Of a DNA stretch of 64,000 nucleotides, positions 26,866-56,462 are shown piece by piece. The translations under genes and the position numbers were made by a program. Origin of the DNA: Candidatus Latescibacterota bacterium. Its GTDB lineage: Bacteria; Latescibacterota; UBA2968; GCA-2709665. How positions within the stretch are numbered: position 1 is the first letter of the stretch; every line of letters starts with the position of its first letter. The notes beneath the pieces were generated by a model. The model did no database searches, was not told the DNA's origin, and saw nothing but the letters and a program-made list of their open reading frames with translations. The DNA lies in contig CBDDDZ010000002.1 of NCBI GenBank assembly GCA_965226795.1, positions 128,001 through 192,000 of the forward strand. Direction: 5' to 3'.

Positions 26866-29800
26866 ATGAAACTCGAAGATCTCCAACCCGACGCGTCGGT
26901 CCGTGGCATCGTTCCTGACGGTGTCGTGACCGTTGTGAACGTGCAATGGCACGGTTCCGGTGCGCTTACCCTGATCTACCGCCCGGCCTCCGGACGGGTC
27001 GCCGAGGAGATTCTCTACCGGCACGACGAGGCGCGCCTCGAAATCGTCGAGCAGGGCCGCCCCTGGAGTTTCGACGGCGACGGCGCGTTGTTCCGTCTCG
27101 TGTCGGAGGCCTACCGCATCCGTCTGGCCCATCTATTCGATCCCGTCCTTGCCGTACACACCTCGCTTGTTGAACCGCTCCCCCACCAGATCACGGCGGT
27201 GTATGAAGCGATGCTGCCCCGCCAGCCACTTCGCTTCCTGCTGGCGGACGACCCCGGCGCTGGCAAGACCATCATGGCAGGATTGTTGATGAAGGAACTC
27301 GTCGCCCGCGGCGACCTCAGGCGATGCCTGGTGGTATGTCCCGGCAGCCTCGCCGAGCAATGGCAGGATGAACTCTACAGGCGTTTCCACCTCCCTTTCG
27401 AGATACTGACGAACGACAAACTCGACGCCGCCCGTACGGGCAATTGGTTCCTCGAAAACGATCTCGCCATCGCACGGTTGGACAAACTCGCCCGCAACGA
27501 GGACCTCCAGGCCAAACTGAGCGCTCCGGACTGCCGCTACGATATGGTGGTCTGCGACGAAGCGCACAAAATGTCGGCGACCTTCTTCGGCGGCGAGGTG
27601 AGATACACCAAACGCTACCGCTTAGGGCAGCTCCTTTCCAATCTCACCCGTCACTTTCTGCTGATGACGGCGACCCCGCACAACGGCAAGGAGGCGGATT
27701 TTCAACTCTTCCTCGCCCTGCTGGACGGCGACCGTTTCGAGGGTCGATTCCGGGATGGCGTGCACCAGGTGGACGTTTCCGATCTCATGCGCCGCATGGT
27801 AAAGGAGAACCTGCTCAGATTCGACGGCCGACCGCTGTTCCCGGAGCGCATTGCGTATTCGGTACCCTACAAACTCACCGACGCCGAAGCCCGGCTGTAC
27901 AGGGAAGTCACGGACTACGTCCGCGAAGAGTTCAATCGCGCCGAGGCGCTGCAAAGCGACACCCGCGCGGGTACCGTCGGCTTTGCGCTCACCATCCTGC
28001 AACGCCGTCTCGCGTCATCACCCGAGGCGATCCACCAGTCGCTGAGGCGGCGGCGCGAGCGCCTGGAAAGCCGCCTACGCGAACTGAGCCTGCAGCAACG
28101 CGGCGCCAGGCAACCGGAAACGATCCCGCAGACCGGTCCATTATTCGATGCCGAGGACGTGGAGGACCTGGACGATGCCCCTTACGAGGAGGTCGAAGCC
28201 GCAGAGGCCGCGGTGCTGGATGAGGCAACAGCGGCCAGTACGATCGCCGAACTCAATGCGGAGATTGCTTCACTCAAATGGCTTGAGGGCCTTGCCGCGG
28301 AGATTCTAAAGAGCGGCGAAGACACGAAGTGGCGCGAACTCTCGAACCTGCTGGCAGAAATCTTTACGCCAGCCGGCCTGGGCGCCAGGGGTGGCGAAAA
28401 GGGCGAACCCTACGGCAGCGGCGCCATCCCGCCGCCCGTCCCGTCACCCAGCCAGAAGCTGGTCCTTTTCACCGAGCACAGGGACACCCTCAACTACCTC
28501 CAACGGCGTATCGCAACGCTGCTCGGCCGGCCCTCTGGCATCGTCACCATTCACGGTAGCATGGGGCGGGAGGATCGCCGCAAGGCCCAGGAGTCGTTCC
28601 TCCACGATCCGCTGGTGCAGGTGCTGCTCGCTACTGACGCGGCCGGGGAGGGCATCAACCTCCAGCGGGCCCATCTGATGGTGAACTACGACCTGCCGTG
28701 GAACCCGAACCGCATCGAACAGCGCTTCGGGCGCATCCACCGCATCGGCCAGACCGAGGTGTGTCATCTGTGGAACCTGGTAGCGGAAGAGACCCGGGAA
28801 GGCGACGTGTACCGGACCCTGTTGGACAAACTGGAGCAGGCCCGAAGCGCCCTCGGCGGCCAGGTCTTCGACGTGCTCGGCAGGCTTCAGTTCGATGGCC
28901 GCCCGCTCCGCGATCTGCTAATCGAGGCGATCCGTTACGGCGAGCAGCCCGAAGTGCGCGCACGACTATCCGAGGCGGTAAGCGAAGCCGTGGACCAGCC
29001 GCACCTGCAGTCCCTGATCGAGGAACAGGCCCTCGCGCAAGATGCGATGGATTCCACTCGTGTCGCACGAGTACGGGAGGAAATGGAGCGCGCCGAAGCC
29101 CGGCGATTGCAGCCGCACTATATCGAGTCGTTCTTCCTCGAAGCGTTCCGTCGCCTGGGGGGTTCGGTGCGGCGGCGCGAAACGGGCAGATACGAAATAA
29201 CGCACGTTCCGGCGCCTGTGCGCAACCGCGACAGGCAGATAGGCGTAGGCGAACCGGTTCTTGCGCGCTATGAACGCATTGCGTTCGACAAGGCATACCT
29301 GGCCCCGCACGGGCAAACGCCCGCGGCCTTCGTGTGTCCGGGACACGCCTTGCTCGACGCCGTTCTCGACCTCACATTGGAACGCCACCGCGACCTCCTG
29401 CAACGTGGCGCCGTGCTCGTGGACGAGCGGGACCCGGGCCTGGAAACGCGCGTGATCTTCTCGCTGGAGCATGCTATTAAGGACGGAAGTGTTTTGGCCA
29501 GTGGCGAGGGCCGTGTCATCTCACGCCGGACGCTTTATGTTGAGATCGATGCAGCCGGCGTGAAGCGCCGTCTCGACTACGCGCCGTACCTTGACTACCG
29601 GCCGCTGGCGGATCACGAACCCAAAGTGGCCGACATCCTTGACCGGCCGGAGTGCGGATGGATCACCCGAAAACTGGAGCAGCAGGCGCGGGAGGAGGCC
29701 ATTGCCAACATCGTGCCGGAACACCTTGGAGAGGTTCGCGACCGGCGCCTTGCTCTGGTTGCGAAAACCCGTGCCGCGGTTAAGGAGCGCCTGACCAAGG

Positions 29801-30438
29801 AAATGGCGTATTGGGATGGACAAGCAGAAAAGCGCAAGCTCCAGGAGAGAGCCGGAAAGGCCGGGGCAAAGCTCAACTCGCGCGAGGCCCAACGGCGCGC
29901 CGACGATCTGCAGGAGCGCCTCCATCAACGCACGGCCCAACTCGACCGGGAGGAGAAAATTTCAGCGCTCCCGCCCGCAGTCGTCGGCGGGCTTGTCGTC
30001 TTACCCATGGGACTTCTGGCAACCATGACCGGAGCCGCCGCACCGCGGCGAACCGTGGACACCCAGAAGTCGGCGGCAAAGGCTCGCGCCATCATCATGG
30101 AAGTGGAACGCGGCCTCGGATTCGAGCCCGTCGACCGGGAGACCGAACATCTCGGTTATGACATTGAGAGCCGGGTGCCGGGCACTGGTAAGCTCCGGTT
30201 CATCGAAGTGAAGGGCCGTCAGTCCGGTGGAGATACGATTACGGTGACGAAGAATGAGATCCTTACGGCGCTGAACAAACCGGACGATTTCATCCTCGGC
30301 ATCGTCGAGTTCCTGGATAGTGGTGAGCATCGAGTACACTACCTGCGCGAGCCCTTCCGAAGGGAGCCGGATTTCGACGTGACGAGCGTCAACTACAAGC
30401 TGAATGACTTGATCAAGCGGGCCGGGAAGCCGGCGTGA
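26866..30438 (+). CDS. SNF2-family helicase with C-terminal DUF3883 (PD-(D/E)XK) nuclease; restriction-like (DUF499/DUF1156) system component
   Basis: DDPGAGKT, DEAH, TATPH, GEGINLQ, QRFGRIHRIGQ; GYDIES..FIEVKG..NE. Confidence 0.93.
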   Translation: MKLEDLQPDASVRGIVPDGVVTVVNVQWHGSGALTLIYRPASGRVAEEILYRHDEARLEIVEQGRPWSFDGDGALFRLVSEAYRIRLAHLFDPVLAVHTSLVEPLPHQITAVYEAMLPRQPLRFLLADDPGAGKTIMAGLLMKELVARGDLRRCLVVCPGSLAEQWQDELYRRFHLPFEILTNDKLDAARTGNWFLENDLAIARLDKLARNEDLQAKLSAPDCRYDMVVCDEAHKMSATFFGGEVRYTKRYRLGQLLSNLTRHFLLMTATPHNGKEADFQLFLALLDGDRFEGRFRDGVHQVDVSDLMRRMVKENLLRFDGRPLFPERIAYSVPYKLTDAEARLYREVTDYVREEFNRAEALQSDTRAGTVGFALTILQRRLASSPEAIHQSLRRRRERLESRLRELSLQQRGARQPETIPQTGPLFDAEDVEDLDDAPYEEVEAAEAAVLDEATAASTIAELNAEIASLKWLEGLAAEILKSGEDTKWRELSNLLAEIFTPAGLGARGGEKGEPYGSGAIPPPVPSPSQKLVLFTEHRDTLNYLQRRIATLLGRPSGIVTIHGSMGREDRRKAQESFLHDPLVQVLLATDAAGEGINLQRAHLMVNYDLPWNPNRIEQRFGRIHRIGQTEVCHLWNLVAEETREGDVYRTLLDKLEQARSALGGQVFDVLGRLQFDGRPLRDLLIEAIRYGEQPEVRARLSEAVSEAVDQPHLQSLIEEQALAQDAMDSTRVARVREEMERAEARRLQPHYIESFFLEAFRRLGGSVRRRETGRYEITHVPAPVRNRDRQIGVGEPVLARYERIAFDKAYLAPHGQTPAAFVCPGHALLDAVLDLTLERHRDLLQRGAVLVDERDPGLETRVIFSLEHAIKDGSVLASGEGRVISRRTLYVEIDAAGVKRRLDYAPYLDYRPLADHEPKVADILDRPECGWITRKLEQQAREEAIANIVPEHLGEVRDRRLALVAKTRAAVKERLTKEMAYWDGQAEKRKLQERAGKAGAKLNSREAQRRADDLQERLHQRTAQLDREEKISALPPAVVGGLVVLPMGLLATMTGAAAPRRTVDTQKSAAKARAIIMEVERGLGFEPVDRETEHLGYDIESRVPGTGKLRFIEVKGRQSGGDTITVTKNEILTALNKPDDFILGIVEFLDSGEHRVHYLREPFRREPDFDVTSVNYKLNDLIKRAGKPA

Positions 30439-30829: not shown

Positions 30830-31702
30830 ATGATCTATTATCTTCCGACCGTGCGCAGTACACGCGAGGGGTGGGAAACGCTCGCCAAACTCGCCAAAGT
30901 TGCTCAGGGTCTCTATTCGGATGAACTGCAACTCAACATGTCAAAGTTGGATTTTTTCGACGCCAACATGGCCGCACCCCTTGGCGCGATTCTTTCAAGG
31001 GTCGCTGACGGTTTCAATACCATTCGCATCGTCGATATGCCGGGCCCAGTCGAGACAATACTTCGCAAGAATCTGTTTCTAACTCATTATTGGTACAAAT
31101 CACTGGATGACAACAATAATACAACCATGCCATTTCGCCGGCTGCGCCTGAGTGACGAGGGTGAGTTCGAAGAATATATCCATTGGCAACTTACCGGAAG
31201 AGGCATCCCCAGAATGTCCGATGGCGCAAGCAGGATCTTCAAAAAAAAGGTTTTTGAAGTGTATCAGAATGCCGTATTCCATTCTGAATCAAATCTTGGT
31301 GTCTTCGTCTGTGGCCAGTTTTTCCCGCAACAGAACCGGCTTGATTTTACGGTTGCAGATGCCGGTATCGGAATTCGAGAGAATGTTCGTCGGTATTTCA
31401 ATAATCCTCGTATCAACTCGCTTCCAGCTCTCAAATGGGCACTCGAGCCATATCACACCACGAAAAGTGGGCCGTATCCCGGTGGGTTAGGCCTTGAGTT
31501 TCTACAGAAATTCGCTCGTCTGAATGACGGTAAGATTCAGATTGCCTCCCGTTTCGCATTCTATGAGTTAAGCCGTGGCACGGAAACTTTCGCGAATATG
31601 GCGGTTGACTTTCCCGGGACTGCCGTAACCATTGAAATTAACACTGCAGATGAGAGTATTTATTTCCTGGAGAGTAAAAGAAAAGCCGACAGTCCGTATT
31701 GA
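30830..31702 (+). CDS. STAS-like + HATPase (GHKL) ATP-binding protein
   Basis: LNMSKLDFFD, EVYQNAVFHS (N box), DAGIGI (G1), GGLGL (G2), FPGT. Confidence 0.8.
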   Translation: MIYYLPTVRSTREGWETLAKLAKVAQGLYSDELQLNMSKLDFFDANMAAPLGAILSRVADGFNTIRIVDMPGPVETILRKNLFLTHYWYKSLDDNNNTTMPFRRLRLSDEGEFEEYIHWQLTGRGIPRMSDGASRIFKKKVFEVYQNAVFHSESNLGVFVCGQFFPQQNRLDFTVADAGIGIRENVRRYFNNPRINSLPALKWALEPYHTTKSGPYPGGLGLEFLQKFARLNDGKIQIASRFAFYELSRGTETFANMAVDFPGTAVTIEINTADESIYFLESKRKADSPY

Positions 31703-31721
31703 ATTGGGAAAGAGGACAAGC

Positions 31722-32081
31722 ATGACGCGAGAAATTACAGTTCGAGTATTTGACATCATTGGTGGTCCCCTGTGCGTATCTACCAGCGACGGCCAACGTC
31801 TGTACGACAAGATTGCTCCACTCTTGAGGGCGGGGTCGCCGGTGGTTCTATCCTTCGAACGGATAGAGATTCTCATCTCGGCTTTTCTCAACGCGGCAGT
31901 GGGTCAGCTTTACGGCGAGTTACCCGAGGAAAGCATCCGTGTGTTGCTCTCGTTTCGCGATTTGGCGGATGACGACCGGGAGATGCTGGAACGTGTAATT
32001 GAAAACGCAAAAATGTACTTTAAAACCCCCGATGATTTCGATCGCGTGTGGCGTGAGGAACTAGGCGATGAAGAAGAATAA
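31722..32081 (+). CDS. STAS-like DUF4325 protein
   Basis: DGQRLY..VVLSFERIEILISAFLNAAVGQLY; AGAGGA RBS before ATG 31722. Confidence 0.8.
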   Translation: MTREITVRVFDIIGGPLCVSTSDGQRLYDKIAPLLRAGSPVVLSFERIEILISAFLNAAVGQLYGELPEESIRVLLSFRDLADDDREMLERVIENAKMYFKTPDDFDRVWREELGDEEE

Positions 32082-32622
32082 GGCGTACGACTTGGCTGCA
32101 TATCCGTTCAGCAGAGGCGAGACTTTTTTGCTTGATGCCAACGTCTGGCTCTATTTGTATCCACCGCCATCCGGGAACGGGAGCAAAATCACCGCGCAAT
32201 ATAGTAACGGCTTAAAGTCCATTCGATCTGTAGGTTCGCCGTTGATTATGGACGCTATGGTGTTGAGTGAATACTTGAATACCTATTGTCGCATTGAATG
32301 GAAGGCTCTACACCTGACCCGGTATCCCAATTTCAAATCATTTCGCAAATCGGCGGCCTTCAGTGGGGTCGGCAAAGGTGCGGCATCCTTTGCAACGTCC
32401 ATGCTCAAGCTCTGTGTGCGCCACGATCATCCGTTTGCCACGGCCAATATCAAGCAAGTGCTGGCAGATTTTACAGCGGGAGTGACTGATTTCAATGACG
32501 GATTGCTGGCTGAAACCTGTCGTCACAATGGCTGGAAACTGATTACGAACGACGTCGACTTCAGGACGGGAGGGATAGAAGTGTTAACCGCAAACTCAAG
32601 ACTCCTGGCAGCATGCCAATGA
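32068..32622 (+). CDS. PIN-domain nuclease
   Basis: LLDANVWL, LSEY.N, DFNDGLL, ITNDVDF acidic quartet. Confidence 0.85.
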   Translation: MKKNKAYDLAAYPFSRGETFLLDANVWLYLYPPPSGNGSKITAQYSNGLKSIRSVGSPLIMDAMVLSEYLNTYCRIEWKALHLTRYPNFKSFRKSAAFSGVGKGAASFATSMLKLCVRHDHPFATANIKQVLADFTAGVTDFNDGLLAETCRHNGWKLITNDVDFRTGGIEVLTANSRLLAACQ

Positions 32623-32881
32623 AGGCTTTCACAATACGTGCATCGACCTCACCCTATATCTTAATGCCATCGCCGAGGCAAATCCCCGGCCGAGCGCGTT
32701 CGTCTCCAAACGTCTGACGAACTGAGTCAGGCGTCTTGCGATCTACGCGACGCAGTCGAAGAGAATTCTTGTCTGAGTTCATCTGACATATCCTGAGGAG
32801 AGGTCGAAGTAAGATCTGAATTGCCCGTGAGGATAGCCTGCCTGACACAGGCCGGCTATCCTCGCAGGCGGAGAACAACTG

Positions 32882-33330
32882 ATGGCGACGAACCAGTACC
32901 GCCCCGACTATGCGGTTCCCCCTGGTTGGGTCCTGGCGGAAAGACTTTCGGCCCAGGATATTTCGCGCGCGGAGTTTGCGCGACGATGTGATCGATCGGC
33001 GAAACTCATCAGCGAGATTATCTCGGGGAAAGCCGCCATAGAGCCGCAGACAGCGCTTCAGTTCGAAAGGGTGCTGGGGGTCGATGCGGATATCTGGTTG
33101 GATATTGAGAAGGACTATCAGTTGCACCAGATCCGACAAGCCGGGGCCAGGGAAGCGTAGCCGGTAGCGGCGCCGAAGGCGCATTCGCGAGTTCGGACAT
33201 TTGCCGCTTTGCCGATGAGCAGGGCATAGCTCCAGGTATTGTTGTCGGAAGACTCCAGCACGAGGAGCGTCTGCCGTGGAGAAGCCGACTCAATAGATTA
33301 AAGGTACCGCTGGAATGGTCGGAGGGTTGA
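32882..33330 (+). pseudogene. higA: HigA-type HTH antitoxin / ImmA-IrrE fusion, internally deleted
   Basis: HTH part 32882-33160 (PDYAVPPG..ISEIISGKAAI); detached C-tail FADEQGIAPGIVVGRLQHE..NRLK in another frame ending 33330; metallopeptidase middle missing. Confidence 0.7.
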
Positions 33331-33354
33331 TGTGGAACCAGAAAACCCCCCACG

Positions 33355-34914
33355 ATGGGCGCCGGATCGGAGAACAAAGACATGGATCAGCTAGCCGCCA
33401 AAGACGTGCTTGAACTCGAAGTGTCCGATTTCGGGCCGATCGTTAATGCCAAGATCGATCTGCGCCCGCTGACGGTATTCGTCGGACCGAGCAATACAGG
33501 AAAATCTTATCTGGCGATTCTGATCTATGCGCTGCATGTGTATTTTACGGGTAGATCGACCACTTCGCGGTTCTTCTTGAACTATGAGAGGCTTCTTAAT
33601 CTCGGTCCAAGCTTTGTAGACAGGGAAACTCTCAACGCGCTCAACGAATTTCTGAAGCAAGTGACGAACGGGATAGGAGATATCCGGAGCGAAAAAGAAG
33701 CTGTTCTTCCCATCCCTATTGTCAAGGCAATTTGCTCAATGTTTGAGTTACAGAACGATCAACTCCACAGTGAAATCGAAAGGTGCTTTGGGATCGACAG
33801 TGCCAGCGCACTTATCCGGAAAGGGAACAGGCGATGTGCGCGGATTGTATTACGGAAATCTACTTCAAGGGATTCGGCATCGTTTGAACACGAACTGATT
33901 CTGAAGTCTAATGCACCAGAATTCGTGACGGCGATGCCTAATGTGGAACAACTGAGGGTTAAACTCGACGATAGGAAAGAGTTCGTTGAGTACTACGACC
34001 GCCTGAAGAATACGTTCTTGAGAGCTGATCAAATGGGCCAGGATTCGTATCGACAAGCCTTGGGGCCAATCAATCATTTGCTTGGACTCGCTCTTCCGCA
34101 CCTTGTAGGTTCCCTTTATCGCGCGGCATTCTATCTCCCCGCCGATCGAACCGGCGTGATGAATAGCCATCAGGTGGTAGTGAGTGCGTTGATCCAGAAC
34201 GCTACAACTGCCGGTCTGCGTCCCGATGAAGAAACTCCAATGCTGTCGGGTGTTTTGGGTGATTTTCTGCAAAACTTGCTCGTATTGCCCAGCGCGGCAA
34301 TTCGTCAAAGCACGTCCAGGAAACATCTGGGTGCGCGAATTGAAGATCTGATTCTCGGCGGATCGATTCAGGTCGAAAGATCGGAGTTGATTAGCTACCC
34401 GCACTTCACCTACCAGCCATCGGGATGGAAACATCCGATGCCGTTGATGAATGCCTCTTCCATGGTATCGGAAATCGCACCGGTAGTGATGTTTCTTCGC
34501 CATCTGGTCAGCCCCGGCTGCACGCTCATTATCGAAGAACCCGAGTCACACCTGCACCCTGCCATGCAGGTCGAATTTACCCGTCAGATCGCCGCGCTTG
34601 TTAAGGCGGGAGTCAGGGTAATCGTCACGACGCACAGCGAGTGGGTACTTGAGGAACTCGCCAACATCGTGCGACGCTCCGAACTTCCCGAGTGCCGTCG
34701 AAAGGACATACCCAACGGCGAATTTGCCCTTCGTCCCCAGCAGGTGGGGGCATGGCTGTTCAAGCAGAAGCGTCGACCGAAGGGGTCGATCGTCGAAGAA
34801 ATTCGATTCGATCCGGATGCCGGTGGGCTCGAGAGTGATTTCAGCGAAGTTGCCGAGCAACTTTACAATGAGTGGGCGACGATCGGTAACCGTATTGCAG
34901 GAAGCACCGAGTAA
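33355..34914 (+). CDS. AAA_15/AAA_21-type ABC ATPase
   Basis: GPSNTGKS Walker A, ASSMVSE signature, IIEEPESHLHP, TTHS. Confidence 0.9.
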   Translation: MGAGSENKDMDQLAAKDVLELEVSDFGPIVNAKIDLRPLTVFVGPSNTGKSYLAILIYALHVYFTGRSTTSRFFLNYERLLNLGPSFVDRETLNALNEFLKQVTNGIGDIRSEKEAVLPIPIVKAICSMFELQNDQLHSEIERCFGIDSASALIRKGNRRCARIVLRKSTSRDSASFEHELILKSNAPEFVTAMPNVEQLRVKLDDRKEFVEYYDRLKNTFLRADQMGQDSYRQALGPINHLLGLALPHLVGSLYRAAFYLPADRTGVMNSHQVVVSALIQNATTAGLRPDEETPMLSGVLGDFLQNLLVLPSAAIRQSTSRKHLGARIEDLILGGSIQVERSELISYPHFTYQPSGWKHPMPLMNASSMVSEIAPVVMFLRHLVSPGCTLIIEEPESHLHPAMQVEFTRQIAALVKAGVRVIVTTHSEWVLEELANIVRRSELPECRRKDIPNGEFALRPQQVGAWLFKQKRRPKGSIVEEIRFDPDAGGLESDFSEVAEQLYNEWATIGNRIAGSTE

Positions 34915-35394: not shown

Positions 35395-38300
35395 ATGACT
35401 CCTCCACGCAAAAAACTCATCGAAGTCGCCCTTCCGCTTGACGCTATAAATGCTGCATCCGCCCGGGAAAAGTCCATCCGTCACGGCCACCCCTGCACCC
35501 TCCACCTCTGGTGGGCGCGGCGGCCATTGGCGGCAGCGCGGGCGGTGATCTTCGCGCAGATGGTGGATGATCCATCGGGGCACCCGGATCTGTTTCCGAC
35601 CGAGGCTGATCAGGAGAAAGAACGCCAACGCCTGTTTCGCCTTATCGAGGAATTGGTGAAGTGGGAGAACACCACCAACGAGGCCGTTCTGGAACGGGCT
35701 CGGTCTGAGATACGGAAAAGCTGGCGTCGAACCTGCGCCGATAATGCTGACCATCCACGTGCCAGCGAGTTGTTCGACCCGGATAAACTACCGGCATTCC
35801 ACGACCCTTTCGCCGGTGGCGGCTCGTTGCCGCTGGAGGCCCAGCGCCTGGGTCTCGAAGCCTATGCCAGTGACCTCAACCCGGTGGCGGTGCTCATCAA
35901 CAAGGCGATGATCGAGATCCCGCCGAAGTTCGCAGGAAGGCCACCGGTTAATCCTGAAGCGCGGGCGAAGTATTTGGACGCGCGTACATCGCGCACGAAT
36001 GAGCCCTTGCTGGGTGTGCGGGCGTCCCGCCCGCACAATGCTTGGCACAGCCGCGGATATCTTCCGCATCTGGATCAACCTGACATCATTCAGTCCATCA
36101 CGTTTCGCCTTGCTGATTCAGTCCCGGCCGATGTCATTGCCGCATGGAAGAGCGAATTGGCGCTCAAAGGCAGGGAGGCCGCGAGCGATCCCAGATGCGC
36201 GGAGTTGCGTGAGAGAATTGAACGATACGCTGGACAGGGACATGGAGCCTGCTGGCTAAGAGATGAGCGGATAGCGGGTCAAGTCGAAGACGCCCTACTT
36301 CACTTTGACGGCGTACGCTACCGCTTGCTGTCGTGGGTCATCATGCCCAATCACGTGCATGCGCTGATCGAAACGACTCCCGGCTTTCCACTTGAGGCCG
36401 TCGTTCATTCGTGGAAATCGTTTACAGCCAAGCAAGTTAACAAAATACTTGGCCGGAGCGGCCAGGTCTGGGAAGAGGACTACTTCGACCGTTATATCCG
36501 CGATGAAAATCATCTATCAACTGTGGTAGACTACATCGAGCAGAACCCTGTAAAAGCGGGTTTGGTTGACACGGCCAGCGATTGGCGTTGGAGCAGCGCA
36601 TCAAGAAATGGCAGCAATACAAAACTTGGAGGAACTGCAAGGGAAAATGCGGACGGGACGTCCGCGTTCCCAGGATTGTGGACCGGAGCAAAAGGCCTCG
36701 CGGAGGACGTACGCTATTACGGCCGGTGGATGCGCGACGAAGCCGAGAAACGAATCGGACATCTCTATCCTAAGATCGAGGTTACCCCGGAGATGGTACG
36801 GGAACGCCCCGACCTAAAGAAGTACGAGGACCGCAAATTGACGGTGATAGCGTGGCTATGGGCGCGGACGGTGAAAAGCCCGAACCCGGCTTTCGCCGAC
36901 ATCGAAGTGCCGCTGGCGTCGACTTTTGTGTTGTCCACGAGAAGGGGGAAGGAAGCCTATGTCGAGCCGGTGATTGAAGGCCGTGGGTATCGGTTTGCTG
37001 TGAAGGCGGGAACTCCGTCGGATCCCCAGACAGCGAAGGCCGGGACCAAACTATCGCGAGGAGCGAACTTCCGCTGCTTGATGTCCGGAGCCCCAATGTC
37101 GGGGGATTACATCAAGGCCGAGGGAAAGGCCGGGCGAATGGGATCGCGGCTGATGGCGATCGTGGCCGAGGGCGACCGCGGGCGCGTGTACCTTTCGCCC
37201 ACCCAGGAGCACGAAGCGGTTGCAGACGAGGCGAATCCGGAGTGGCGGCCGGAAGTGACCATATCTGGAAGCACGCAGTATCTCGGTATCAAGCCCTATG
37301 GTATGACCCATTTCGACCAACTATTCACCCCCCGCCAACTAGCCGCCCTGACCACCTTCTCCGACTTGGTTACGGAAGCGATGGGGCGAGTCGAGCGGGA
37401 TGCTGCTACCGTCGATCTATCTAAGGACGAGCGACCCCTGCGGGATGGGGGCACTGAGGCCAAGGCGTATGCGGAGGCGGTGGGGGTGTACGTGGCGTTT
37501 GCTATTGATAAGGGAGCGAACTACTGGTCATCCCTATGCGCTTGGCATCAAACACGTGATGGGATCGTCTCCACTTTTGGACGCCAAGCATTGCCGATGG
37601 TTTGGGACTATACCGAGGCGAATCCCCTCAGTAGCTCGTCTGGTAATGTCCTGCTTGGTGTAGAGCAAGCTGCGAAGATGATCGCCTTACTTGGGGCGGG
37701 GGCTTGCGGTTTGGTGTCTCAAGAGGATGCAGCCACTCAATCAACTAGTGTGGACAAAGTCGTTTCCACTGATCCTCCCTACTACGACAACATCCCCTAC
37801 GCTGACCTGTCTGACTTTTTCTACGTCTGGCTACGGCGCTCGCTCAATCCGGTTTTCCCCAGCCTATTCGCTACACTCGCTGTCCCCAAATCCGAAGAAC
37901 TGGTCGCTTTCGCGTACCGCCAGGATGGTAAGGCAGGTGCCGAGGCCTTTTTCCTCAACGGAATGACCGAGGCGATGCGCCGCCTCGCCGAGCAAGGCCA
38001 CCATAGCTTTCCCGTAACCATATATTACGCCTTCAAGCAGTCCGAGACCAAAGGCGACGCTGGTACTTCCAGCACCGGTTGGGAGACCTTTTTGGATGCC
38101 GTCATCCGCGCTGGCTTTGCACTCACCGGCACTTGGCCGATTCGCACCGAATACACCGGGAACCTAAAGAGAAACCACGCGGCCCTTGCCTCCAGCATCG
38201 TCCTTGTCTGTCGCAAGCGTCTTGCGCGCGCGCCTCTGGCCACACGCCGCGAATTCGTCGCTGCGTTGAGAGAAGAGCTTCCTTCCGCTCTGGCTCACCT

Positions 38301-38976
38301 GCAAAGCGGCAATATCGCCCCGGTGGATCTCGCACAGGCCGCTATCGGTCCCGGCATGGCCGTGTTCACACGATACGCCAAAGTTCTCGACACCCAGGGC
38401 AATCCCGTATCGGTGGGCGAGGCATTGGCGCTGATCAATCAGATACTGGACGAGGTGCTGGCCGAACAGGAGGGAGAATTTGACGCCGACACGCGGTGGG
38501 CGCTGGCGTGGTTCGAGCAGCACGGCTTTGGCGAGGGCGAGTACGGCGTGGCGGAAACCCTGGCGAAGGCAAAGAACACCAGCATCGCCGGCATCGTCGA
38601 GGGCGGTATTCTCGCCTCCCGGGGTGGCAGGGTGCGCCTTTTGCGTCCGAACGAGTTGTCCGGCGATTGGGATCCGACGTCCGACACTCGGCTGACCGTG
38701 TGGGAGGCGGTCCACTACCTGGTCCACGCTCTTGAATCTGGCGGCGAATCAGCCGCAGCTACGCTGGTTCATCAACTAGGGGGCCTCGCCGAGACCGCAC
38801 GCGAACTGGCCTATCGACTATACGTGGTCTGCGAACGCAAAAACCGCGCCGAGGAGGCCCGCTCATACAACGGCCTCGTGCAAAGCTGGCCTGAAATCGC
38901 GCGCCTGTCGCGGGAACGAGCTCCGGCGGAGCAGGGCGACATATTTGGGGACAGAAATTCGGGAAGTGTCGCATGA
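35395..38976 (+). CDS. DUF1156 adenine DNA methyltransferase with in-frame RAYT transposase insertion (copy 1)
   Basis: [18 protein letters not shown] (motif I), TDPPYYDN (motif IV); RAYT domain between REPs at 36010-36673. Confidence 0.92.
36010..36673 (+). mobile_element. REP-bounded RAYT cassette inside methyltransferase 1
   Basis: REP2 36010-36035(+) and 36648-36673(-) enclose [37 protein letters not shown]. Confidence 0.85.
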
Positions 38977-38983
38977 CGTAACC

Positions 38984-39124
38984 CTGGGAGCGCGGGCGTC
39001 CCGCCCGCATGTGGGACTTCAATTCTGTCCCGTAGCGCCACGATTGAGCGCCGTTTTGACGATGCCCCACGTCTTGTGGGCATGTCGTTTGGCAAACTTC
39101 TGGAAGCGCGGGCGCCTGCCCTCG
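38984..39124 (+). repeat. REP family 2 copies after methyltransferase 1
   Basis: CTGGGAGCGCGGGCGTCCCGCCCGCA at 38984-39009; degenerate hybrid copy at 39100-39124. Confidence 0.8.
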
Positions 39125-39279
39125 ATAGGGAGCGCGGGATTTACTCCCTATCGATAGCGTCAGCAGCGCCATTGCGTTGTGACAACCAACGGCGCAGATT
39201 CCGGCGCAATGCCCGCAGGCCCGCCGAACTTTCGCTGTCTCGCCGCAATAAATATTCGGCTATCCATTCCATTATCTAA

Positions 39280-41079
39280 CCTGATCAATTCATGAATTGT
39301 CACGGATTGCAGTTTCGGGAAGTAGAAACAGGTTCCGAGTGAATCGAGAAACGGAAGGAAAGACCTGGCTGTGACGGATTTGGAGTTTTCAAGCCGCTTC
39401 AGTGGCACGTGCTGGTAACACGGTAGCGCCGGTGCGTCAGGTTGTCCTTTATGCCCCGGTCAAAAGCACAGAGGTCTCCCTGTGTTTTGGTGATGGCGAT
39501 CAAAACGTGAAGGCGGATTCAACCGGACGATGCGTTATGGAACGGACGATGCCAGATTGTAGAGGATCTTGGCATAGAGGTGTTTGAGTGGAAACGCGGT
39601 TGGCAGATGGAACGTGATTTTGGTTTTCATCTCACAGACGCGTCCGGCCTGCCTGCCGAGCATCCGGCGCAGGCAGGCGACCTTCAAGAGGCGATTTTGC
39701 AGCGTATTATACTGGGCGTTCGTCCACTTGGTGCCGCGCAATCCCATTTCAGCCAAGGTCTGCAACAGGACATAGGCGGCGCTGTGGAGAAAGAGCCGGA
39801 AGTGATTGGCCTCGAAGGTGTGACAAGAGGTGCGATCGGAATGGAGAAAGGTCTTGTGATTCTTGATAAAGCCTTCCATCCTGCCTGCCTGGCCGGCAGA
39901 CAGGCCGCGTCTACAATAGACGGTTTTGTAGATGAATGAAGGGTTGGCGCGTTGCAGGTTGGTGGCCACGAAACGGATATTGTCTCCTTGCGGTGTCACT
40001 TCCGCCTTGCAGATGATGCGGCGTGGCGAAGCCCAGGTGCTGGCCTGATAGTTCCACGCGTTATATAGGCGTACGGTTTTGCCGGAAACGGCATACAGCG
40101 CTTTGGCCTGGTCCATCAAGGGCTGTGCCCTGGGCAGCAACTTGGCATTGCCGCTTTGTCCAAGGGAAAAATACACATTCTGTGTGTCACACAACGCGTG
40201 AACTTCCGGACACGAAAAATGTGAATCGCCACGCAACAGGATCGCCACATTGGGCCAGGCTCGACGCAAGTAGGCGATCACCCGTTTGAGAATCGAAACG
40301 ATCTCTTTCCCCGTGGGCCGCCTGCCTGCAGCAGGCAGGCACGCCAGGACGCAGAATCGTCGTGATCAACCTGCCGGTTTGCCCTTCATAGATATGCAAC
40401 GGTTGGTAGCAATGACTCTTAAATTACGCATTGAATAACGACAACTGCCCAGACCCATACACCTTATCTTCCGTATCGTCGATATCCAACAGGATGGCTT
40501 TGGGCGGTTTCTTATACGAGGCGATAAACACGTCGGCAAAGGCCTTCGCGATCCGATATAAGTCACCTCTGGTGATCCGGTTCTCGAACCGACTCATCGT
40601 GGGTTGACTGGCCAGATCCGCACCGGTCAGCGGCAACCGATCACAGGCCGCCTTGAAGCCGGGGTCCCCGCGTAACGCATTGCAGTCGTTCGCATCCTCA
40701 TACCCACACGCCATCTGAATGACACGCTGACTGACCAGGTCCGCCGTCGGGTGATCCACGTAACTGGGATGCCGACGATCTGTTATGGCCTCAATGATCC
40801 GACGCAAAATGCCGATTTTGGACGCCACCTCCCGCAGCAGCATTACCCCGCTGTCGCCTGTCTGCGTGCGTACACGCACAGGCAGGCTGGTCAGAATACC
40901 CCCATCGAAGGCGGCTTTCACCTGTTTTCCGGAAAGACTTGCGAAAGACATCCTGTGTTGTTTATCTTGAATCTCCACGGTAGTTTCCTCCCGATTCATT
41001 GTGTTAAGGTTATTCGTCTAACCATAATATAATACAATGACTTGGGTACGGAAACTACCTTTTTTGTGAATTATTCAGG
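39280..41079 (-). mobile_element. IS1380-family insertion sequence
   Basis: Imperfect terminal IRs CCTGATCAATTCA / CCTGAATAATTCA, CTAA target duplication at 39276-39279 and 41080-41083. Confidence 0.88.
39535..40999 (-). pseudogene. IS1380 transposase, inactivated
   Basis: FDGG.LTSD.G, GYEDAND, LASQPTMSRFEN, LDIDDT, LLRGDSHF motifs; in-frame TAA at 40424-40426 and a 19 bp palindrome insertion causing a frameshift at ~40320. Confidence 0.88.
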
Positions 41080-41128
41080 CTAATTGAACCCAAACGAAGA
41101 TTGAAAATTAAAAGGCGTTGACTCGAAG

Positions 41129-44100
41129 ATGAATACCTACCGCAAAAAACTCATCGAAGTCGCCCTACCGCTTGACGCGATAAATGTCGCGTCGGCCAAG
41201 GAGAAGTCCATCCGACACGGCCACCCCAGCACCCTTCACCTCTGGTGGGCGCGACGGCCGTTGGCAGCGGCACGGGCGGTGATCTTCGCACAGATGGTGG
41301 ATGATCCATCGGCACATCCCGATCTGTTTCCATCCGAGGCTGACCAGGAGAAAGAACGCCAGAGCCTGTTTCGCCTTATCGAAGAATTGGTGAAGTGGGA
41401 GAACACCACCAACGAGGCGGTACTGGAACGGGCGCGATCGGAGATCCGCAAGTCCTGGCGTCGAACCTGCGCAGAAAACGCAGACCATCCGCGTGCAAGC
41501 GAGTTGTTCAACCCCGACAAGCTGCCGGCATTTCACGACCCTTTCGCCGGCGGCGGCGCATTGCCGCTGGAGGCCCAACGACTGGGGCTCGAAGCCTATG
41601 CCAGTGACCTCAACCCGGTGGCGGTGCTCATCAACAAGGCGATGATCGAGATCCCGCCGAAGTTCGCAGGAAGGCCGCCGGTTAATCCTGAAGCGCGGGC
41701 GAAGTATTTGGACGCGCGTACATCGCGCACGAATGAGCCCTTGCTGGGTGTGCGGGCGTCCCGCCCGCACAAGGCCTGGCACAGCCGCGGATATCTTCCG
41801 CATCTGGATCAACCTGACATCATTCAGTCCATCACGTTTCGCCTTGCTGATTCAGTCCCGGCCGATGTCATTGCCGCATGGAAGAGCGAATTGGCGCTCA
41901 AAGGCAAGGAGGCCACGAGCGATCCCAGATGCGCGGAGTTGCGTGAGAGAATTGAACGATACGCTGGACAGGGACATGGAGCCTGCTGGCTAAGAGATGA
42001 GCGGATAGCGGGTCAAGTCGAAGACGCCCTACTTCACTTTGACGGCGTACGCTACCGCTTGCTGTCGTGGGTCATCATGCCCAATCACGTGCATGCGCTG
42101 ATCGAAACGACTCCCGGTTTTCCACTTGAGGCCGTCGTTCATTCGTGGAAATCGTTTACAGCCAAGCAAGTTAACAAAATACTTGGCCGGAGCGGCCAGG
42201 TCTGGGAAGAGGACTACTTCGACCGTTATATCCGCGATGAAAATCATCTATCAACTGTGGTAGACTACATCGAGCAGAACCCTGTAAAAGCGGGTTTGGT
42301 TGACACGGCCAGCGATTGGCGTTGGAGCAGCGCATCAAGAAATGGCAGCAATACAAAACTTGGAGGAACTGCAAGGGAAAATGCGGACGGGACGTCCGCG
42401 TTCCCAGGATTGTGGACCGGAGCAAAAGGCCTCGCGGAGGACGTACGCTATTACGGCCGGTGGATGCGCGACGAAGCCGAGAAACGAATCGGACATCTCT
42501 ATCCTAAGATCGAAGTCACTGCGGAGATGGTCCGTGAACGGCCCGACCTCAAACCGTACGAGGGTAAAAGGTTGACGGTGATCGCGTGGCTTTGGGCACG
42601 GATGGTGAAGAGTCCAAACCCGGCCTTTGCCGACGTAGACGTGCCGCTGGCCTCCACATTCATGCTATCGACAAAGAAGGGGAAAGAGGCGTATGTAGAG
42701 CCGGTGATCGAGGGGCGCGGTTATCGGTTTACGGTTAACGTGGGGAATCCAAATGATGCGGAATCGACGAGGCGGGGCACCAAGTCGGGTGGAAGCGGTA
42801 GCTCTTTTCTTTGCCTCATGTCAGGGACTCCAATGCCATTCGATTATCTTAGGAGCGAGGCCAAGCAAGGTCGAATGGGTGAGAAACTGATGGCAATAGT
42901 CGCAGAAGGCGACCGCGGCCGGGTTTACATCCCCCCGACCGAAGTGCAAGAAGCGATCGCAAAGCGCGCTACGCCGGCTAATACCCCGGAAACCGACCTA
43001 CCTGAACGGGCACTCGGATTTCGCGTGCAGCAGTACGGTATGACCAAGTGGCGGGATCTCTTTGCAGCACGCCAACTCGTCGCCCTGACCACCTTGTCGG
43101 ACTTGGTCGCAGAGGCAATGGAGCGCGTCAACCGCGATTACTTGGCAGCACAGGTCCCTGACATACCTTCGAGCGGGACAGCCTCGGTCCCAGACAACGA
43201 TACGCCCCTACGCAACGGGGGCGCTGGCGCAATGGCGTATGCTGAGGCGGTGGGGGTGTATCTCGGATTGGCTGTGAGTAAGGAGACGGTTTTTCTCGTA
43301 ACACAGGCTCGCTGGAGAGCAGGCGAGGGCAAATCAGCACCTGGGTTTGGGAGGCAGGCGTTGCCAATGGTCTGGGACTACGCAGACCTGAATCCGTTTG
43401 CAGGAGCTGGTGGCGACTTTCTTGGCGTCATTGAGGGGATTGAGAAAACCCTGCGCAATGCGCCTCCTCCGATCGCTGGGTACACTGATCAAGCGGATGC
43501 GATGAATCAGAAATTAAGTCTCGACAAGGTTGTGTCAACGGACCCACCCTACTACGACAACATTGGCTACGCCGACCTTTCCGATTATTTTTACGTTTGG
43601 CTGCGCCACCCGCTTAAGCCGATCCTTCCCTACCTCTTTACTACGCTCGCCGTACCAAAGGTCGACGAATTGGTCGCCACACCATACCGTCACGGCAGCA
43701 AGGTGAAAGCAGAGAAGTTCTTTCTCGATGGTATGGGCCAGGCGATGTGCCGCTTGGCCGAACAAGCGCACCCCGGCTTTCCGGTCACCATCTACTATGC
43801 CTTCAAGCAGTGCGAGACCAAAGGCAACAGTGGTATTTCCAGTACCGGGTGGGAAACTTTCCTGGCTGCCGTAATCCAGTCAGGCTTCGCAGTCACAGGC
43901 ACATGGCCGATGCGTACGGAGAATTCGACTCGGCTTGTCGGTATGATCACCAACTCACTCGCATCCAGCATAGTCCTCGTCTGCCGCAAGCATTCGGCCA
44001 ATGCACCGCTGGCCACGCGCCGCGAGTTCGTCGCCGCGTTGCGGGGAAAACTTCCAAGCGCTCTAGCCCGACTTCAATCCGGAAACATTGCCCCGGTCGA

Positions 44101-44749
44101 TCTGGCGCAGGCAGCCATCGGACCCGGCATGGCAGTGTTCACGCGCTATACCAAAGTACTCGATGCCCAGGGCAATCCCGTATCCGTAGGTGACGCCTTG
44201 GCGTTAATTAATCAGACACTCGACGAGGTTCTTGCCGAGCAGGAGGGCGAATTCGACGCCGACACGCGGTGGGCGCTGGCGTGGTTCGAGCAGGAAGGCT
44301 TTGGCGAGGGCGAGTACGGCGTGGCGGAAACCCTGGCGAAGGCAAAGAACACCAGCATCGCCGGCATCGTCGAGGGTGGTATTCTCGCCTCCCGGGGTGG
44401 CAGGGTGCGCCTTTTGCGTCCGAACGAGTTGTCCGGTGACTGGGATCCGACGTCCGACACTCGGCTGACCGTGTGGGAGGCGGTCCACTACCTGGTCCAC
44501 GCTCTTGAATCTGGCGGCGAATCCGCCGCCGCCACGCTGGTTAACCAACTCGGCGGTGTCGCCGAGACCGCACGCGAACTGGCCTATCGGCTATATATCG
44601 TTTGCGAGCGCAAGAACCGCAATGAGGAAGCCCGCTCTTACAACGGCCTCGTACAAAGCTGGCCTGAAATTGCACCCCTGTCTCGGGAGCGAGCTCCGGC
44701 GGAGCAGGGCGACATCTTTAGGGACCGAAATCCGAGAAGTGTCGCATGA
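41129..44749 (+). CDS. DUF1156 adenine DNA methyltransferase with in-frame RAYT transposase insertion (copy 2)
   Basis: Same motifs as copy 1; divergent central target-recognition segments. Confidence 0.92.
41744..42407 (+). mobile_element. REP-bounded RAYT cassette inside methyltransferase 2
   Basis: REP2 41744-41769(+) and 42382-42407(-); nearly identical to 36010-36673. Confidence 0.85.
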
Positions 44750-44756
44750 CGTAACC

Positions 44757-44782
44757 CTGGGAGCGCGGGCGTCCCGCCCGCA
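44757..44782 (+). repeat. REP family 2 copy after methyltransferase 2
   Basis: CTGGGAGCGCGGGCGTCCCGCCCGCA, same position relative to the stop codon as 38984-39009. Confidence 0.85.
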
Positions 44783-50675: not shown

Positions 50676-50718
50676 ATTTTCGCCGATTGGCTAGCCGGGA
50701 TACTCGGGAAATGTGCCA

Positions 50719-53138: not shown

Positions 53139-56100
53139 ATGGCCATTACAAATCAAGAACGCGTCGGCAAGGCGCTCGAACTCCTCAAGGCCGGGCTCGG
53201 CCCGTTTGTCGGGCGCGAGGTCCAGGACAGAATCGAGGTCGGTGGCGTACACATGGACGTGATCCGGCGCTTCGTCGATGATCCGCACCTGACGGACAAG
53301 CCCATAGAGAAGTGGGATGCCTCCGCACTCCTCAAGCTGATGTGGGATACGTGGAACGACGTATTCCGCAACACGTTGGGCCATGCCGAGCGCAGCCTCG
53401 TCAGCGAGATTCGCAGCCAGCGCAACAAGTGGGCGCACCAGGACAGATTCTCCGGCGACGACGCCGACCGCACGCTCGACTCTATCGCCCGCCTGCTGAT
53501 GGCAGTCTCCGCGCCGGAGGCGGACGAGGTCAACCGCATGAAGATGGAGTTGCGCCGTCTGATCTTTGAGGAGCAGGCGCGCAACGAGCACCGCCGAGGT
53601 GCCGGCGCCACCGTCGAAAGCCAGGTCGCCCCCGGCCTGAAGCCCTGGCGCGAGGTGGCAACGCCGCACACCGACGTGGCGACTGGCGGGTATCAGCAGG
53701 CGGAGTTCGCGGCGGATTTGTGGCAGGTTCATCTCGGAGAGGGCTCGGACGAGTACCGTGACCCGCGGGAGTTCTTCCGTCGGACGTACCTTACCGAAAG
53801 CCTGAGACGTCTGCTGGATGGCGCGGCGAGGAGGCTGGCCGGCAAGGGAAGTGACCCGGTGGTGCAGTTGCAGACCAACTTCGGCGGGGGCAAGACGCAC
53901 TCCATGCTGGCGCTTTACCACCTGTTTTCAGGCATTGCACCGGGAAAGCTCGAGGGTATGGACGAGGTGCTGGCGGGAGCGGCAGTCGATACGCCCTCGG
54001 CCGTACGGCGCGTGGTGCTTGTTGGCAACCGCATCTCCCCTGGCAATCCGGTGGAAAAACCGGACGGGACCGTGGTGCGCACTTTGTGGGGCGAACTCGC
54101 CTACCAGCTTGGCGGGCGAGATGCGTTTGAGCGGGTCCGCGCCGACGACGAACAGGCGACGAATCCCGGTGATGCGTTGCGCGAGCTATTCAACGAGTAC
54201 GGACCTTGCGTGGTGCTAATCGATGAGTGGGTGTCGTACGCGCGACAGCTCCACGATGAGGGAGATCTGCCCGGCGGCAGTTTTGAGACGCAGTTCACCT
54301 TTGCGCAGGCGCTAACCGAATCGGCGAAACTTACGGGCAACTGCCTGCTGGTGATTTCGCTTCCGGCTTCGGACACATCCGATTCGAGTTCGCCGCACGC
54401 AGAGGCTGACGATGCCGAGGTGGGCGGCATCCGGGGCCGCAGCGCCCTGGAACGCTTACGCAATGTACTCGGGCGGGTGGATTCGCCCTGGCGACCGGCA
54501 AGCGCAGAGGAGAGTTTCGAGATCGTGCGGCGGCGGCTGTTCGAACCGCTCGCGGGGACGGACGCCTTCAAACAACGCGATTTAACTGTGCAGGCTTTTG
54601 GGGAACTTTACCGCTCTCAACAGGTGGAGTTTCCCGTCGATTGTCGCACCATGGAATACCAGCGCCGCGTTCAGGCCGCATACCCGATTCATCCGGAGAT
54701 CTTTGACCGGCTCTACACGGACTGGTCCTCGCTTGCCAGGTTCCAGCGCACCCGCGGCGTGTTGCGACTGATGGCTTCGGTGATCCACAGCCTGTGGGAG
54801 AGTGGAGACCGCAATCCGATGATTCTTCCGTCCACCATCCCCATTGACGATCAGCGGGTGCAGAATGAGTTGACACGGTATTTGCCTGAAAACTGGACGC
54901 CCGTCATCGAAAAGGATGTTGACGGTCCCGGCGCCTTACCCCTCAGGATCGACGCCGAGGCGCCGAACCTCGGCAAACTCTCTGCGGCACGGCGGGTGGC
55001 GCGCACCGTTTATCTCGGTTCCGCGCCGACCACGGCAGCGGCCCACCGGGGTATCGATGATGCCCGGGTCAAGCTCGGCTGCGTGATGCCGGGGGAATCG
55101 CCTGCCATATTCGGCGATGCGCTGCGCAGGCTGGCGGCGGCGGCGACCTATCTCTACCAGGACGGTGCCCGGGTGTGGTATGCGACGCAGCCCACCGTCA
55201 CCAAGCTCGCCGAAGACCGCGCCGAGCAGTTGAGGGGGCAGCCCGACGAGGTGGCGGCGGAACTGGAAAAGCGACTCAAAACGGACCTGCGCGCGGCGGG
55301 AGACTTCGAGCGAATTCACCCGCTGCCCCGTTCAGGGGCGGACGTGCCCGACGACCTCGATGCACGGCTCGTGGTGCTTTCGGCGGAGCAGCCCTATTGG
55401 AAAGAGCCGGACAACGCGGCCCAGGTTGCCGCAAAAGACATCCTGGAGATGCGCGGCAACACGCCGAGGCTCTACCGGAATACGCTGGTCTTCCTTGCGG
55501 TGGACAGGGTGCGATGGCAGGACCTGGACGAAGCCCTGCGCAGGTACCTGGCGTGGGAGTCGATCCTCGAGGACAGGGTCGCACTCAACCTGGATCCGCA
55601 CCAGGCCCGCCAGGCCGAAAACCAGAAGAATGCGGCTAACGACACGGTCACGGCTCGCCTTCCGGAGGCATATCAGTGGCTGCTGGCGCCGGAGCAGTCT
55701 AACCCACAGTCGGCGCTGTCATGGAACGCGATCCGACTGACGGCCTCCGGCGGGCTCGCAGAACGGGCTTCCAGGCGACTGCGCAACGACGAGATGCTGG
55801 TTTCCACGCTCGGCGCCACGATTCTTCGGAAACACCTCGACGACGTGCCGCTCTGGCGCGGCGATCACGTAGAAGTCCGGCAACTCGTCCAGGACTTCGG
55901 GCAGTTCCTGTACCTTCCGCGGCTCGCGGGCCCGGACGTACTTATACGCGCGATTCAGGATGGCGTATCCCTGTTGTCCTGGAAAACCGACAGCTTCGCC
56001 TTTGCCGAGAGTTACGACCGTAGAGAAACGCTATCGGGGGCTGCGGGCAGCTGGAACGTCAATGTACCGCCAGAGAGCACGGCAATACTTGTGAAGCCGT

Positions 56101-56462
56101 TGATTGCCGGGGAGCAGTTGGAACGAGAGAAGCCGCGAGAACCGGGAGTAGAGACGCCCGGCGATCCTGAGGAAGAAATTCGACGTGACGACACACCACC
56201 TCCGACGCCGGAGCCACCCGAGGTGAAACCTCGCCGGTACCATGGCGCGGTGACGCTGGACGCCCAAAGGGTGGGCCGCGACGCCAGCCAGATCGCCGAC
56301 GAGGTAATCGCGCATCTTTCAGGGATCGTAGGCGCGGATGTGACGGTTACGCTGGAGATTCACGCGGAGATACCGGATGGGGCTCCGGAAACTGTCGTGC
56401 GGACGGTCACCGAGAACAGCCAGACGCTGAAATTCGAGAGCCACGGGTTCGAGGAGTCGTAG
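53139..56462 (+). CDS. Swt1-like HEPN + DUF499 AAA+ ATPase; restriction-like system component
   Basis: RNKWAHQ (RxxxxH HEPN), PWREVATPH, AEFAADL, TNFGGGKTHS, LIDE, YPIHPE, FQRTRGVLRL. Confidence 0.92.
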   Translation: MAITNQERVGKALELLKAGLGPFVGREVQDRIEVGGVHMDVIRRFVDDPHLTDKPIEKWDASALLKLMWDTWNDVFRNTLGHAERSLVSEIRSQRNKWAHQDRFSGDDADRTLDSIARLLMAVSAPEADEVNRMKMELRRLIFEEQARNEHRRGAGATVESQVAPGLKPWREVATPHTDVATGGYQQAEFAADLWQVHLGEGSDEYRDPREFFRRTYLTESLRRLLDGAARRLAGKGSDPVVQLQTNFGGGKTHSMLALYHLFSGIAPGKLEGMDEVLAGAAVDTPSAVRRVVLVGNRISPGNPVEKPDGTVVRTLWGELAYQLGGRDAFERVRADDEQATNPGDALRELFNEYGPCVVLIDEWVSYARQLHDEGDLPGGSFETQFTFAQALTESAKLTGNCLLVISLPASDTSDSSSPHAEADDAEVGGIRGRSALERLRNVLGRVDSPWRPASAEESFEIVRRRLFEPLAGTDAFKQRDLTVQAFGELYRSQQVEFPVDCRTMEYQRRVQAAYPIHPEIFDRLYTDWSSLARFQRTRGVLRLMASVIHSLWESGDRNPMILPSTIPIDDQRVQNELTRYLPENWTPVIEKDVDGPGALPLRIDAEAPNLGKLSAARRVARTVYLGSAPTTAAAHRGIDDARVKLGCVMPGESPAIFGDALRRLAAAATYLYQDGARVWYATQPTVTKLAEDRAEQLRGQPDEVAAELEKRLKTDLRAAGDFERIHPLPRSGADVPDDLDARLVVLSAEQPYWKEPDNAAQVAAKDILEMRGNTPRLYRNTLVFLAVDRVRWQDLDEALRRYLAWESILEDRVALNLDPHQARQAENQKNAANDTVTARLPEAYQWLLAPEQSNPQSALSWNAIRLTASGGLAERASRRLRNDEMLVSTLGATILRKHLDDVPLWRGDHVEVRQLVQDFGQFLYLPRLAGPDVLIRAIQDGVSLLSWKTDSFAFAESYDRRETLSGAAGSWNVNVPPESTAILVKPLIAGEQLEREKPREPGVETPGDPEEEIRRDDTPPPTPEPPEVKPRRYHGAVTLDAQRVGRDASQIADEVIAHLSGIVGADVTVTLEIHAEIPDGAPETVVRTVTENSQTLKFESHGFEES

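Follow-up and report, generated by a model that had tools for sequence, protein, structure and literature searches.

An in-frame RAYT transposase domain in the HmaB methyltransferase of a Latescibacterota Hma defence operon

A RAYT (TnpA_REP) transposase domain is embedded in frame, together with REP hairpins that bound it, in the DUF1156 methyltransferase HmaB of a Candidatus Latescibacterota bacterium, in a 64,000-nucleotide stretch of DNA referred to here as the window. The reading that we favour, with modest confidence, is that the RAYT in HmaB is a mobile, unspliced REPtron that sits in the frame of its host gene and spreads by recombination; an earlier note on this DNA had offered a selfish REP-RAYT element as one of its two readings, and the evidence favours it. 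RAYTs are present in roughly a quarter of bacterial species and are regarded as domesticated genes that do not jump, and we know of no explanation of REP movement in vivo.

The host gene, the RAYT and the REP hairpins

Copy 1 of hmaB (Table 1) is a single uninterrupted frame in which Pfam places DUF1156 at residues 12-82 and Y1_Tnp at 309-384, and it matches the PADLOC HmaB profile with 1523 bits, the match being broken in two around the insert. The DUF1156 head, methyltransferase motifs I (residues 137-143) and IV (residues 793-796) and an operon with an HmaA helicase-nuclease and an HmaC ATPase are all present; these sequence features identify the host as HmaB, encoded in a defence operon of the Hma (Type-1 BREX-related) type, with methylation as its predicted function. 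The alignment in which both motifs are invariant comprises 43 filled and 28 empty proteins. PMC12839542 names the Hma system Type-1 BR and describes the methylase as of the N6 type. A sequence search found no solved structure related to HmaB.

Table 1. Features of the hmaB region and its operon in the window.
Feature	Position	Strand	Basis
Free-standing RAYT of the insert's family, 48% identical, REP-flanked, directly upstream of hmaA	25770..26525	+	
hmaA, SNF2 helicase-nuclease	26866..30438	+	Pfam; PADLOC HmaA 1648 bits
hmaB copy 1, DUF1156 N6-methyltransferase with in-frame RAYT at site A, 1193 aa	35395..38976	+	PADLOC
Methyltransferase motif I, 5' of insert	35803..35823	+	Invariant in 71/71 aligned proteins
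Tract common to hmaB copies 1 and 2, 6 mismatches in 926 bases	35854..36779	+	
Segment without counterpart in empty alleles, 238 codons instead of a 14-codon loop	35965..36678	+	
Decayed outer REP copy, 16/26 against inner left REP	35974..35999	+	
Left REP hairpin, translated; foot with two substitutions rare in the family	36010..36035	+	
RAYT core (HUH 36352-36360, catalytic Tyr 36532-36534)	36040..36600	+	NF047646; 4ER8 best match
Right REP hairpin, inverted, translated	36648..36673	-	
Methyltransferase motif IV	37771..37782	+	Invariant in 71/71 aligned proteins
REP copy directly after hmaB copy 1 stop codon	38984..39009	+	
hmaB copy 2, same insert (REPs 41744-41769 and 42382-42407), other variable segments	41129..44749	+	ORF, Pfam, REP search
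REP copy after hmaB copy 2	44757-44782		
hmaC, DUF499-type ATPase	53139..56462	+	HmaC 1106 bits

The earlier note had described an intact RAYT in frame in a DUF1156 methyltransferase, and this description stands. The HUH motif begins at residue 317 (H320, H322), the catalytic tyrosine is Y380, and the core passes the curated RAYT model NF047646 with 92.8 bits (cut-off 80). HUH and Y-x-x-x-NP motifs, the class-2 signature according to PMC6006769, are both present, and sequence and fold comparisons alike give E. coli TnpA_REP (4ER8) as the closest solved structure. The note put the RAYT at about 220 amino acids; the segment that differs from same-genus empty alleles is longer, at 238 codons, and also includes an outer decayed repeat. 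Over the site-A segment as a whole, filled and same-genus empty alleles have 261 and 37 residues respectively. An IS200/IS605 identity was rejected, NF033573 scoring 29.9 bits against a cut-off of 55 and the tyrosine motif not being of the Y-x-x-x-Q form. The absence of an intein was borne out, with no intein model from Pfam or NCBIfam and with junctions that are REP-coded and differ between alleles. A group I intron or IStron was rejected (the Rfam search gave one chance-level match, outside the insert), as was an internal start making a free RAYT, there being no Met in residues 173-245.

Structure prediction, proposed earlier as a check, gave a confident RAYT fold and left the methylase core unresolved. 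In the alignment-based AlphaFold model of the full protein (pTM 0.31) the methylase core is poorly modelled and only the RAYT domain (pLDDT about 67-90) and helical parts are resolved, the linkers falling below 50; a single-sequence model (pLDDT 38) was not usable. The RAYT is likely a separately folded domain on flexible linkers that stays in HmaB unspliced. Contigs X19 and X21 from RNA libraries span the insert, which is evidence neither of transcription nor against splicing.

The two REPs had been recognised as inverted and translated without a stop, and this is confirmed: the arms are inverted copies at 21 of 26 bases, a score reached by 0 of 2000 shuffles, and each forms a 7-9 bp hairpin with no stop in any of six frames. 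The GT[AG]G foot 5' of the hairpin is absent, the consensus of 256 hairpins has another foot, and the feet of both window REPs deviate from that family consensus; PMC6006769 lists subclasses with atypical repeats. The genome contains 10, 16 and 18 copies of the family at up to 3, 5 and 6 mismatches (raw counts). With a consensus built from overlapping loci, two intact hairpins were found in 20 of 22 fused loci (one of which is not hmaB) versus 52 of 143 free loci, and there are paired changes on both stem arms. At G000:C5:3050007-3052778, far from the Hma locus, four near-perfect REPs lie about 120 bases apart with one inverted partner.

Filled, empty and REP-only alleles

Alignment against homologues, the check suggested for finding empty-site alleles, shows that hmaB occurs in both states within the window's genus, being filled in G000 (twice), G008 and G010 and empty in the five genomes G001, G002, G004, G005 and G013. 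Across 168 genomes of the phylum, searched with the host N-terminus only, a RAYT is present in 9 of 54 hmaB-like matches and absent from the other 45 (38 were inspected and 16 classed by frame length), and several of the hmaB frames are truncated. These counts and the same-genus empty alleles rule against an ancient constitutive domain, the condition under which the note's reading was to fall. In the top 120 homologues, a ranking that favours inserts, the RAYT lies at the window's site (site A) in 44, at a second HmaB loop (site B) in 43, at both in three and at neither in 30; the homologue, genus and phylum data sets partly overlap and are not independent. Neither a target-site duplication nor a precise empty site was found against same-genus empty alleles, and the filled allele is a replacement of loop codons and not a simple insertion.

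Several alleles have REP doublets and no RAYT in the same loops, as expected once the RAYT gene has been lost: P0090 and P0092 at site A, and P0040, P0052, P0054, P0082, P0088, G140 and G117a at site B (junction classes and REP-only remnants were judged by eye, with no scripted count). Other in-frame inserts that are not RAYTs occupy these loops in P0046 and P0105 (site A) and in G167 and G103b (site B), so that the loops appear to be general landing sites. A more distant hmaB-like gene, L236 (G117:C198), carries a RAYT and tandem REP arrays near residue 528.

Arrival, spread and competing explanations

In a tree of 173 RAYT rows the inserts at site A, site B and a third HmaB site (P0141) are interleaved with free genes and with inserts in other hosts. 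AU tests on 31 rows, picked after the 173-row tree had been seen, reject monophyly of the site-A inserts (p 1.6e-5) and of the site-B inserts (p 5e-50). The state changes 20 times at site A and 19 times at site B on the host tree; 20 changes is fewer than the shuffle mean of 37.6, and this clustering implies that much of the inheritance is vertical. The REP reading frame also differs between junctions. The other reading in the note, a single domesticated methylase-HUH fusion, is disfavoured by the several sites, the several RAYT clades and the repeated loss.

The free RAYT of the window has site-B inserts as its nearest relatives, and the site-B insert of G016 groups with it (dS 0.49 versus 0.87 between the two hmaA genes); G016 has no RAYT within about 15 kb upstream of hmaA. 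Five genomes of the genus have a free RAYT immediately 5' of hmaA (25770-26525 in the window; L113, L115, L116 and L117), and in G004 and G005 a lone REP remains at this position.

The host scan covered the 150 closest representatives of the core, 45 of them (at least 300 aa) analysed by Pfam and 15 by PADLOC. It gave 19 recognisable internal hosts, five with host sequence on one side only: HmaB (7), MmeI-type enzymes (4), type III methylases (2), a type IIG enzyme (1), PriA (2) and one each of a DinG-like, a WYL and a creatininase protein. In P0193 and P0237 the RAYT family is in frame in PriA, the replication-restart helicase, between the 3' binding domain and the motor. In 43 of 80 GTDB loci the core is followed by a stop within 10 codons, most with a nearby ATG (by eye), and the idea that the cassette always lacks its own start or stop was rejected on these loci.

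The insert appears to have spread recently between hmaB alleles. The tract common to the two window copies consists of the insert and about 100 bases on each side, whereas the rest of the two genes is 76% alike, and dS between them is 0.015 for the insert and 0.47 for the host N-terminus. Between the window and G008 it is 0.11 for the insert, 1.16 for the host N-terminus and 0.20 for hmaA, and copy 1 has positions 36002-36536 in common with G008 (seven mismatches), a stretch that begins 8 bases ahead of the left REP. Across seven alleles the inserts are within 4% of each other and the host parts 3-17% apart. In sequencing runs of other studies the insert differs at 3 of 548 (X10), 1 of 590 (X8) and 6 of 717 (X18) positions, and most of the host pieces listed from those runs are about 3-10% different. 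At site B no sweep was seen (0 of 10 close pairs). As a control, 6 of 15 near-identical tracts (435 pairs, 97-98% identity, one genus) span site A between empty alleles, so that exchange there needs no RAYT, and window copies 1 and 2 have a further 97-98% tract near 38495-38695 with no insert in it. Spread of the insert by recombination is thus seen as a pattern, with the RAYT as its possible driver.

Three other explanations were weighed. The RAYT could be a recruited accessory domain that nicks single-stranded invader DNA through its methylase tether, or that promotes recombination shuffling the hmaB target-recognition segments. We regard this as unlikely. In its favour, defence methyltransferases, from four families, make up 14 of the 19 identified internal hosts; host benefit accounts for this bias no less well than mobility does, and the choice of the HmaB insert as query inflates it. 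The host is hmaB in each of the 10 fully fused GTDB loci, three more RAYTs lie outside hmaB within Hma loci, and the free RAYTs before hmaA also fit recruitment. So does strong purifying selection on the inserts, which supports the mobile reading too: dN/dS is 0.07-0.10 in diverged site-A pairs, similar to hmaA and the hmaB N-terminus. It also counts for the mobile reading that in 93 inserts the two catalytic histidines and the tyrosine are conserved in 93, 92 and 92 cases, all three in 91 (the exceptions are P0003 at site B and P0087). Alleles of hmaB from one genus (L233-L256) have scaffold blocks that are 90-97% alike and several variable blocks at 45-75%, a pattern that suggests a mosaic with frequent exchange of specificity, and one hypervariable segment adjoins site B. 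Recruitment, however, sits poorly with the 45 of 54 hmaB alleles that have no RAYT, the repeated loss that leaves REP doublets, the inconstant position of the insert and the presence of non-defence hosts such as PriA and creatininase. Free RAYTs outside Hma loci neighbour mixed housekeeping genes (120 ORFs), which counts against recruitment and on which a family-wide link to defence islands was rejected.

Also improbable is that this is an ordinary RAYT with the usual host-useful role on genomic REPs, which landed in hmaB by accident a few times and is a passenger of background recombination. The exchange of the same region between empty alleles speaks for this, as do the similar dN/dS of free RAYTs (0.10-0.14 for most pairs) and the account of RAYTs as conserved and non-jumping genes in 10.1101/2021.07.10.451892. 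It requires many separate arrivals, however, since both main sites are polyphyletic, a third site is in use, some alleles are double-filled and other genes also serve as hosts; and with a free member of the family already in the genome two more copies look redundant.

An assembly chimera or collapsed repeat, which the 926-base near-identical tract and the lack of a listed Logan piece bridging the outer left junction with 31 bases on both sides might suggest, is highly improbable given that 90 of the 120 best-ranking homologous proteins, drawn from many assemblies, contain an insert, that the separate assemblies G008, G010 and G016 have this junction type too, that the two copies differ at six positions, and that contigs X1 (0 differences; possibly from the source sample itself) and X19 (12 differences) cross the right junction. 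The artefact that the note had named as a way to be wrong is in this manner largely set aside.

Mechanism and relation to known elements

Under the favoured reading of a mobile in-frame REPtron, RAYT-REP units would move among free positions and genes through HUH cleavage and strand transfer near REPs. Units with no stop before the right REP would be translated past it, and those that landed in tolerant loops would be the only ones to last; free relatives usually stop directly after the core, so that fusion requires a stop-less variant. Once in hmaB, the insert would pass from allele to allele through homologous recombination in the conserved sequence on either side, possibly aided by RAYT nicks, and alleles that lose the RAYT would retain in-frame REP doublets, which then decay. 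Genes for defence methyltransferases would suit such an element, being often exchanged and recombined.

TnpA_REP is reported in PMC3333891 to bind its own hairpin, to cut single-stranded DNA at CT on either side and up to more than 400 nt away, and to perform strand transfer, and its authors consider the carrying of flanking genes possible; this chemistry could move a REP-RAYT-REP unit. The earlier suggestion that the element survives since the methylase cannot be lost found no support. According to PMC11232893 hmaB adjoins only 85.3% of hmaA homologues and HmaB overexpression is without effect on T4 infection. Truncated hmaB frames also occur in the phylum, and in the related system MANTIS a methylase knockout is tolerated. 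Loss of the methylase is harmless in MANTIS, but a methylase that still targets and does not methylate is toxic, and by analogy the in-frame inserts that last would be those that spare methylation. Against a mobile insert, a HUH enzyme that nicks next to the REP of its own element would break the filled allele, and ordinary gene conversion would then favour loss.

A stronger proposal, which we put forward tentatively and consider rather doubtful, is that this RAYT lineage has turned into a splice-less homing element specialised for the DNA methyltransferases of defence systems (HmaB, MmeI, type IIG and type III), which would nick its own translated hairpins while tethered to its host and so drive one-way copying of itself and adjacent specificity segments between alleles. 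A patchy distribution and an insert history unlike that of the host are both seen, as for homing elements; the single conserved and precise insertion site typical of these is absent, loop codons being replaced at several sites and in several frames. If true, this would represent HUH-driven homing and direct evidence of RAYT self-mobilisation.

The insert resembles the RAYT/TnpA_REP REPtron (class 2 TnpA_Y1; 4ER8; PMC6006769, PMC3333891, PMC8266576) in its HUH and Y-x-x-x-NP core, its fold and the genome-scattered hairpin repeats that flank it, and differs in being lodged in a host gene and lacking a separate start and stop, in REPs whose foot is not GT[AG]G, in the three RAYT copies of the genome and in its signs of movement. 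In these respects the insert departs from a stand-alone, single-copy, non-mobile RAYT gene. PMC8266576 reports no evidence of tnpA_REP mobility, 10.1101/2021.07.10.451892 terms RAYTs non-jumping, and PMC5581495 leaves room for a degree of horizontal transfer in its Group 1. The HmaB described in PMC11232893 and PMC12839542 has the same DUF1156 head, motifs I and IV, and operon with helicase-nuclease, DUF499 ATPase and cargo genes in between; the window differs in the 224 additional residues at site A and in its two hmaB copies. The terms HUH, transposase and RAYT are absent from the main text of PMC12839542.

The nearest analogue of HmaB-RAYT appears to be ShiLan, which together with lone LAGLIDADG inserts in actinophage methylases (PMC11855218, PMC9957025) shows a patchy, stop-free methylase insert of about 200 aa that moves between diverged alleles, has no splicing machinery and is predicted to loop out. 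ShiLan, an unspliced homing insert, conceals an out-of-frame HNH and is inserted precisely between two codons, whereas the window insert is an in-frame HUH enzyme for single-stranded DNA that brings hairpins of its own and is found at several sites of chromosomal defence genes, where it replaces loop codons. Intragenic REPs and the Rickettsia palindromic elements (PMC3733652) are likewise in-frame translated palindromes in loops, often of DNA-processing proteins, but are short and non-autonomous, while the HmaB insert brings a whole transposase. IStrons (10.1101/2023.11.20.567912) are also transposase-bearing elements that are harmless within a gene, but splice out as group I introns, and no intron was found in the HmaB insert. 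The HmaB insert represents a further, unspliced way for an element to hide in a gene.

Searches of open-access main texts turned up no account of a RAYT within a methylase. The proposed search for proteins with both DUF1156 and Y1_Tnp found that Pfam labels already pair the two domains, so that the architecture is visible in databases; the 2018 survey (PMC6006769) dropped long proteins as fusions or annotation errors, and surveys that filter out long fusions miss such inserts. Since alleles of a single gene may be filled, empty, double-filled or reduced to REPs, they provide a ready donor-recipient pair for tests of RAYT self-mobility.

Among the remaining features of the operon, the earlier note had included neither the second filled hmaB (41129-44749) nor the free RAYT (25770-26525). 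Copy 2 lies 5.7 kb downstream of copy 1, and its insert is 99% identical. The tandem hmaB genes (35395-44749) lie in one Hma operon, differ in their variable segments and are each followed by the same REP; they may possibly represent two specificities. A broken IS1380-like transposase lies between them on the minus strand (39535-40999). The cargo between the hma genes (30830-34914 and 44956-52538) comprises an HATPase-STAS-PIN trio, an AAA ATPase pair, a pentapeptide protein, a TrlF/Ppl-like PHP-ATPase, an AlbA protein, a DUF488 protein and an HEC-01-like ATPase.
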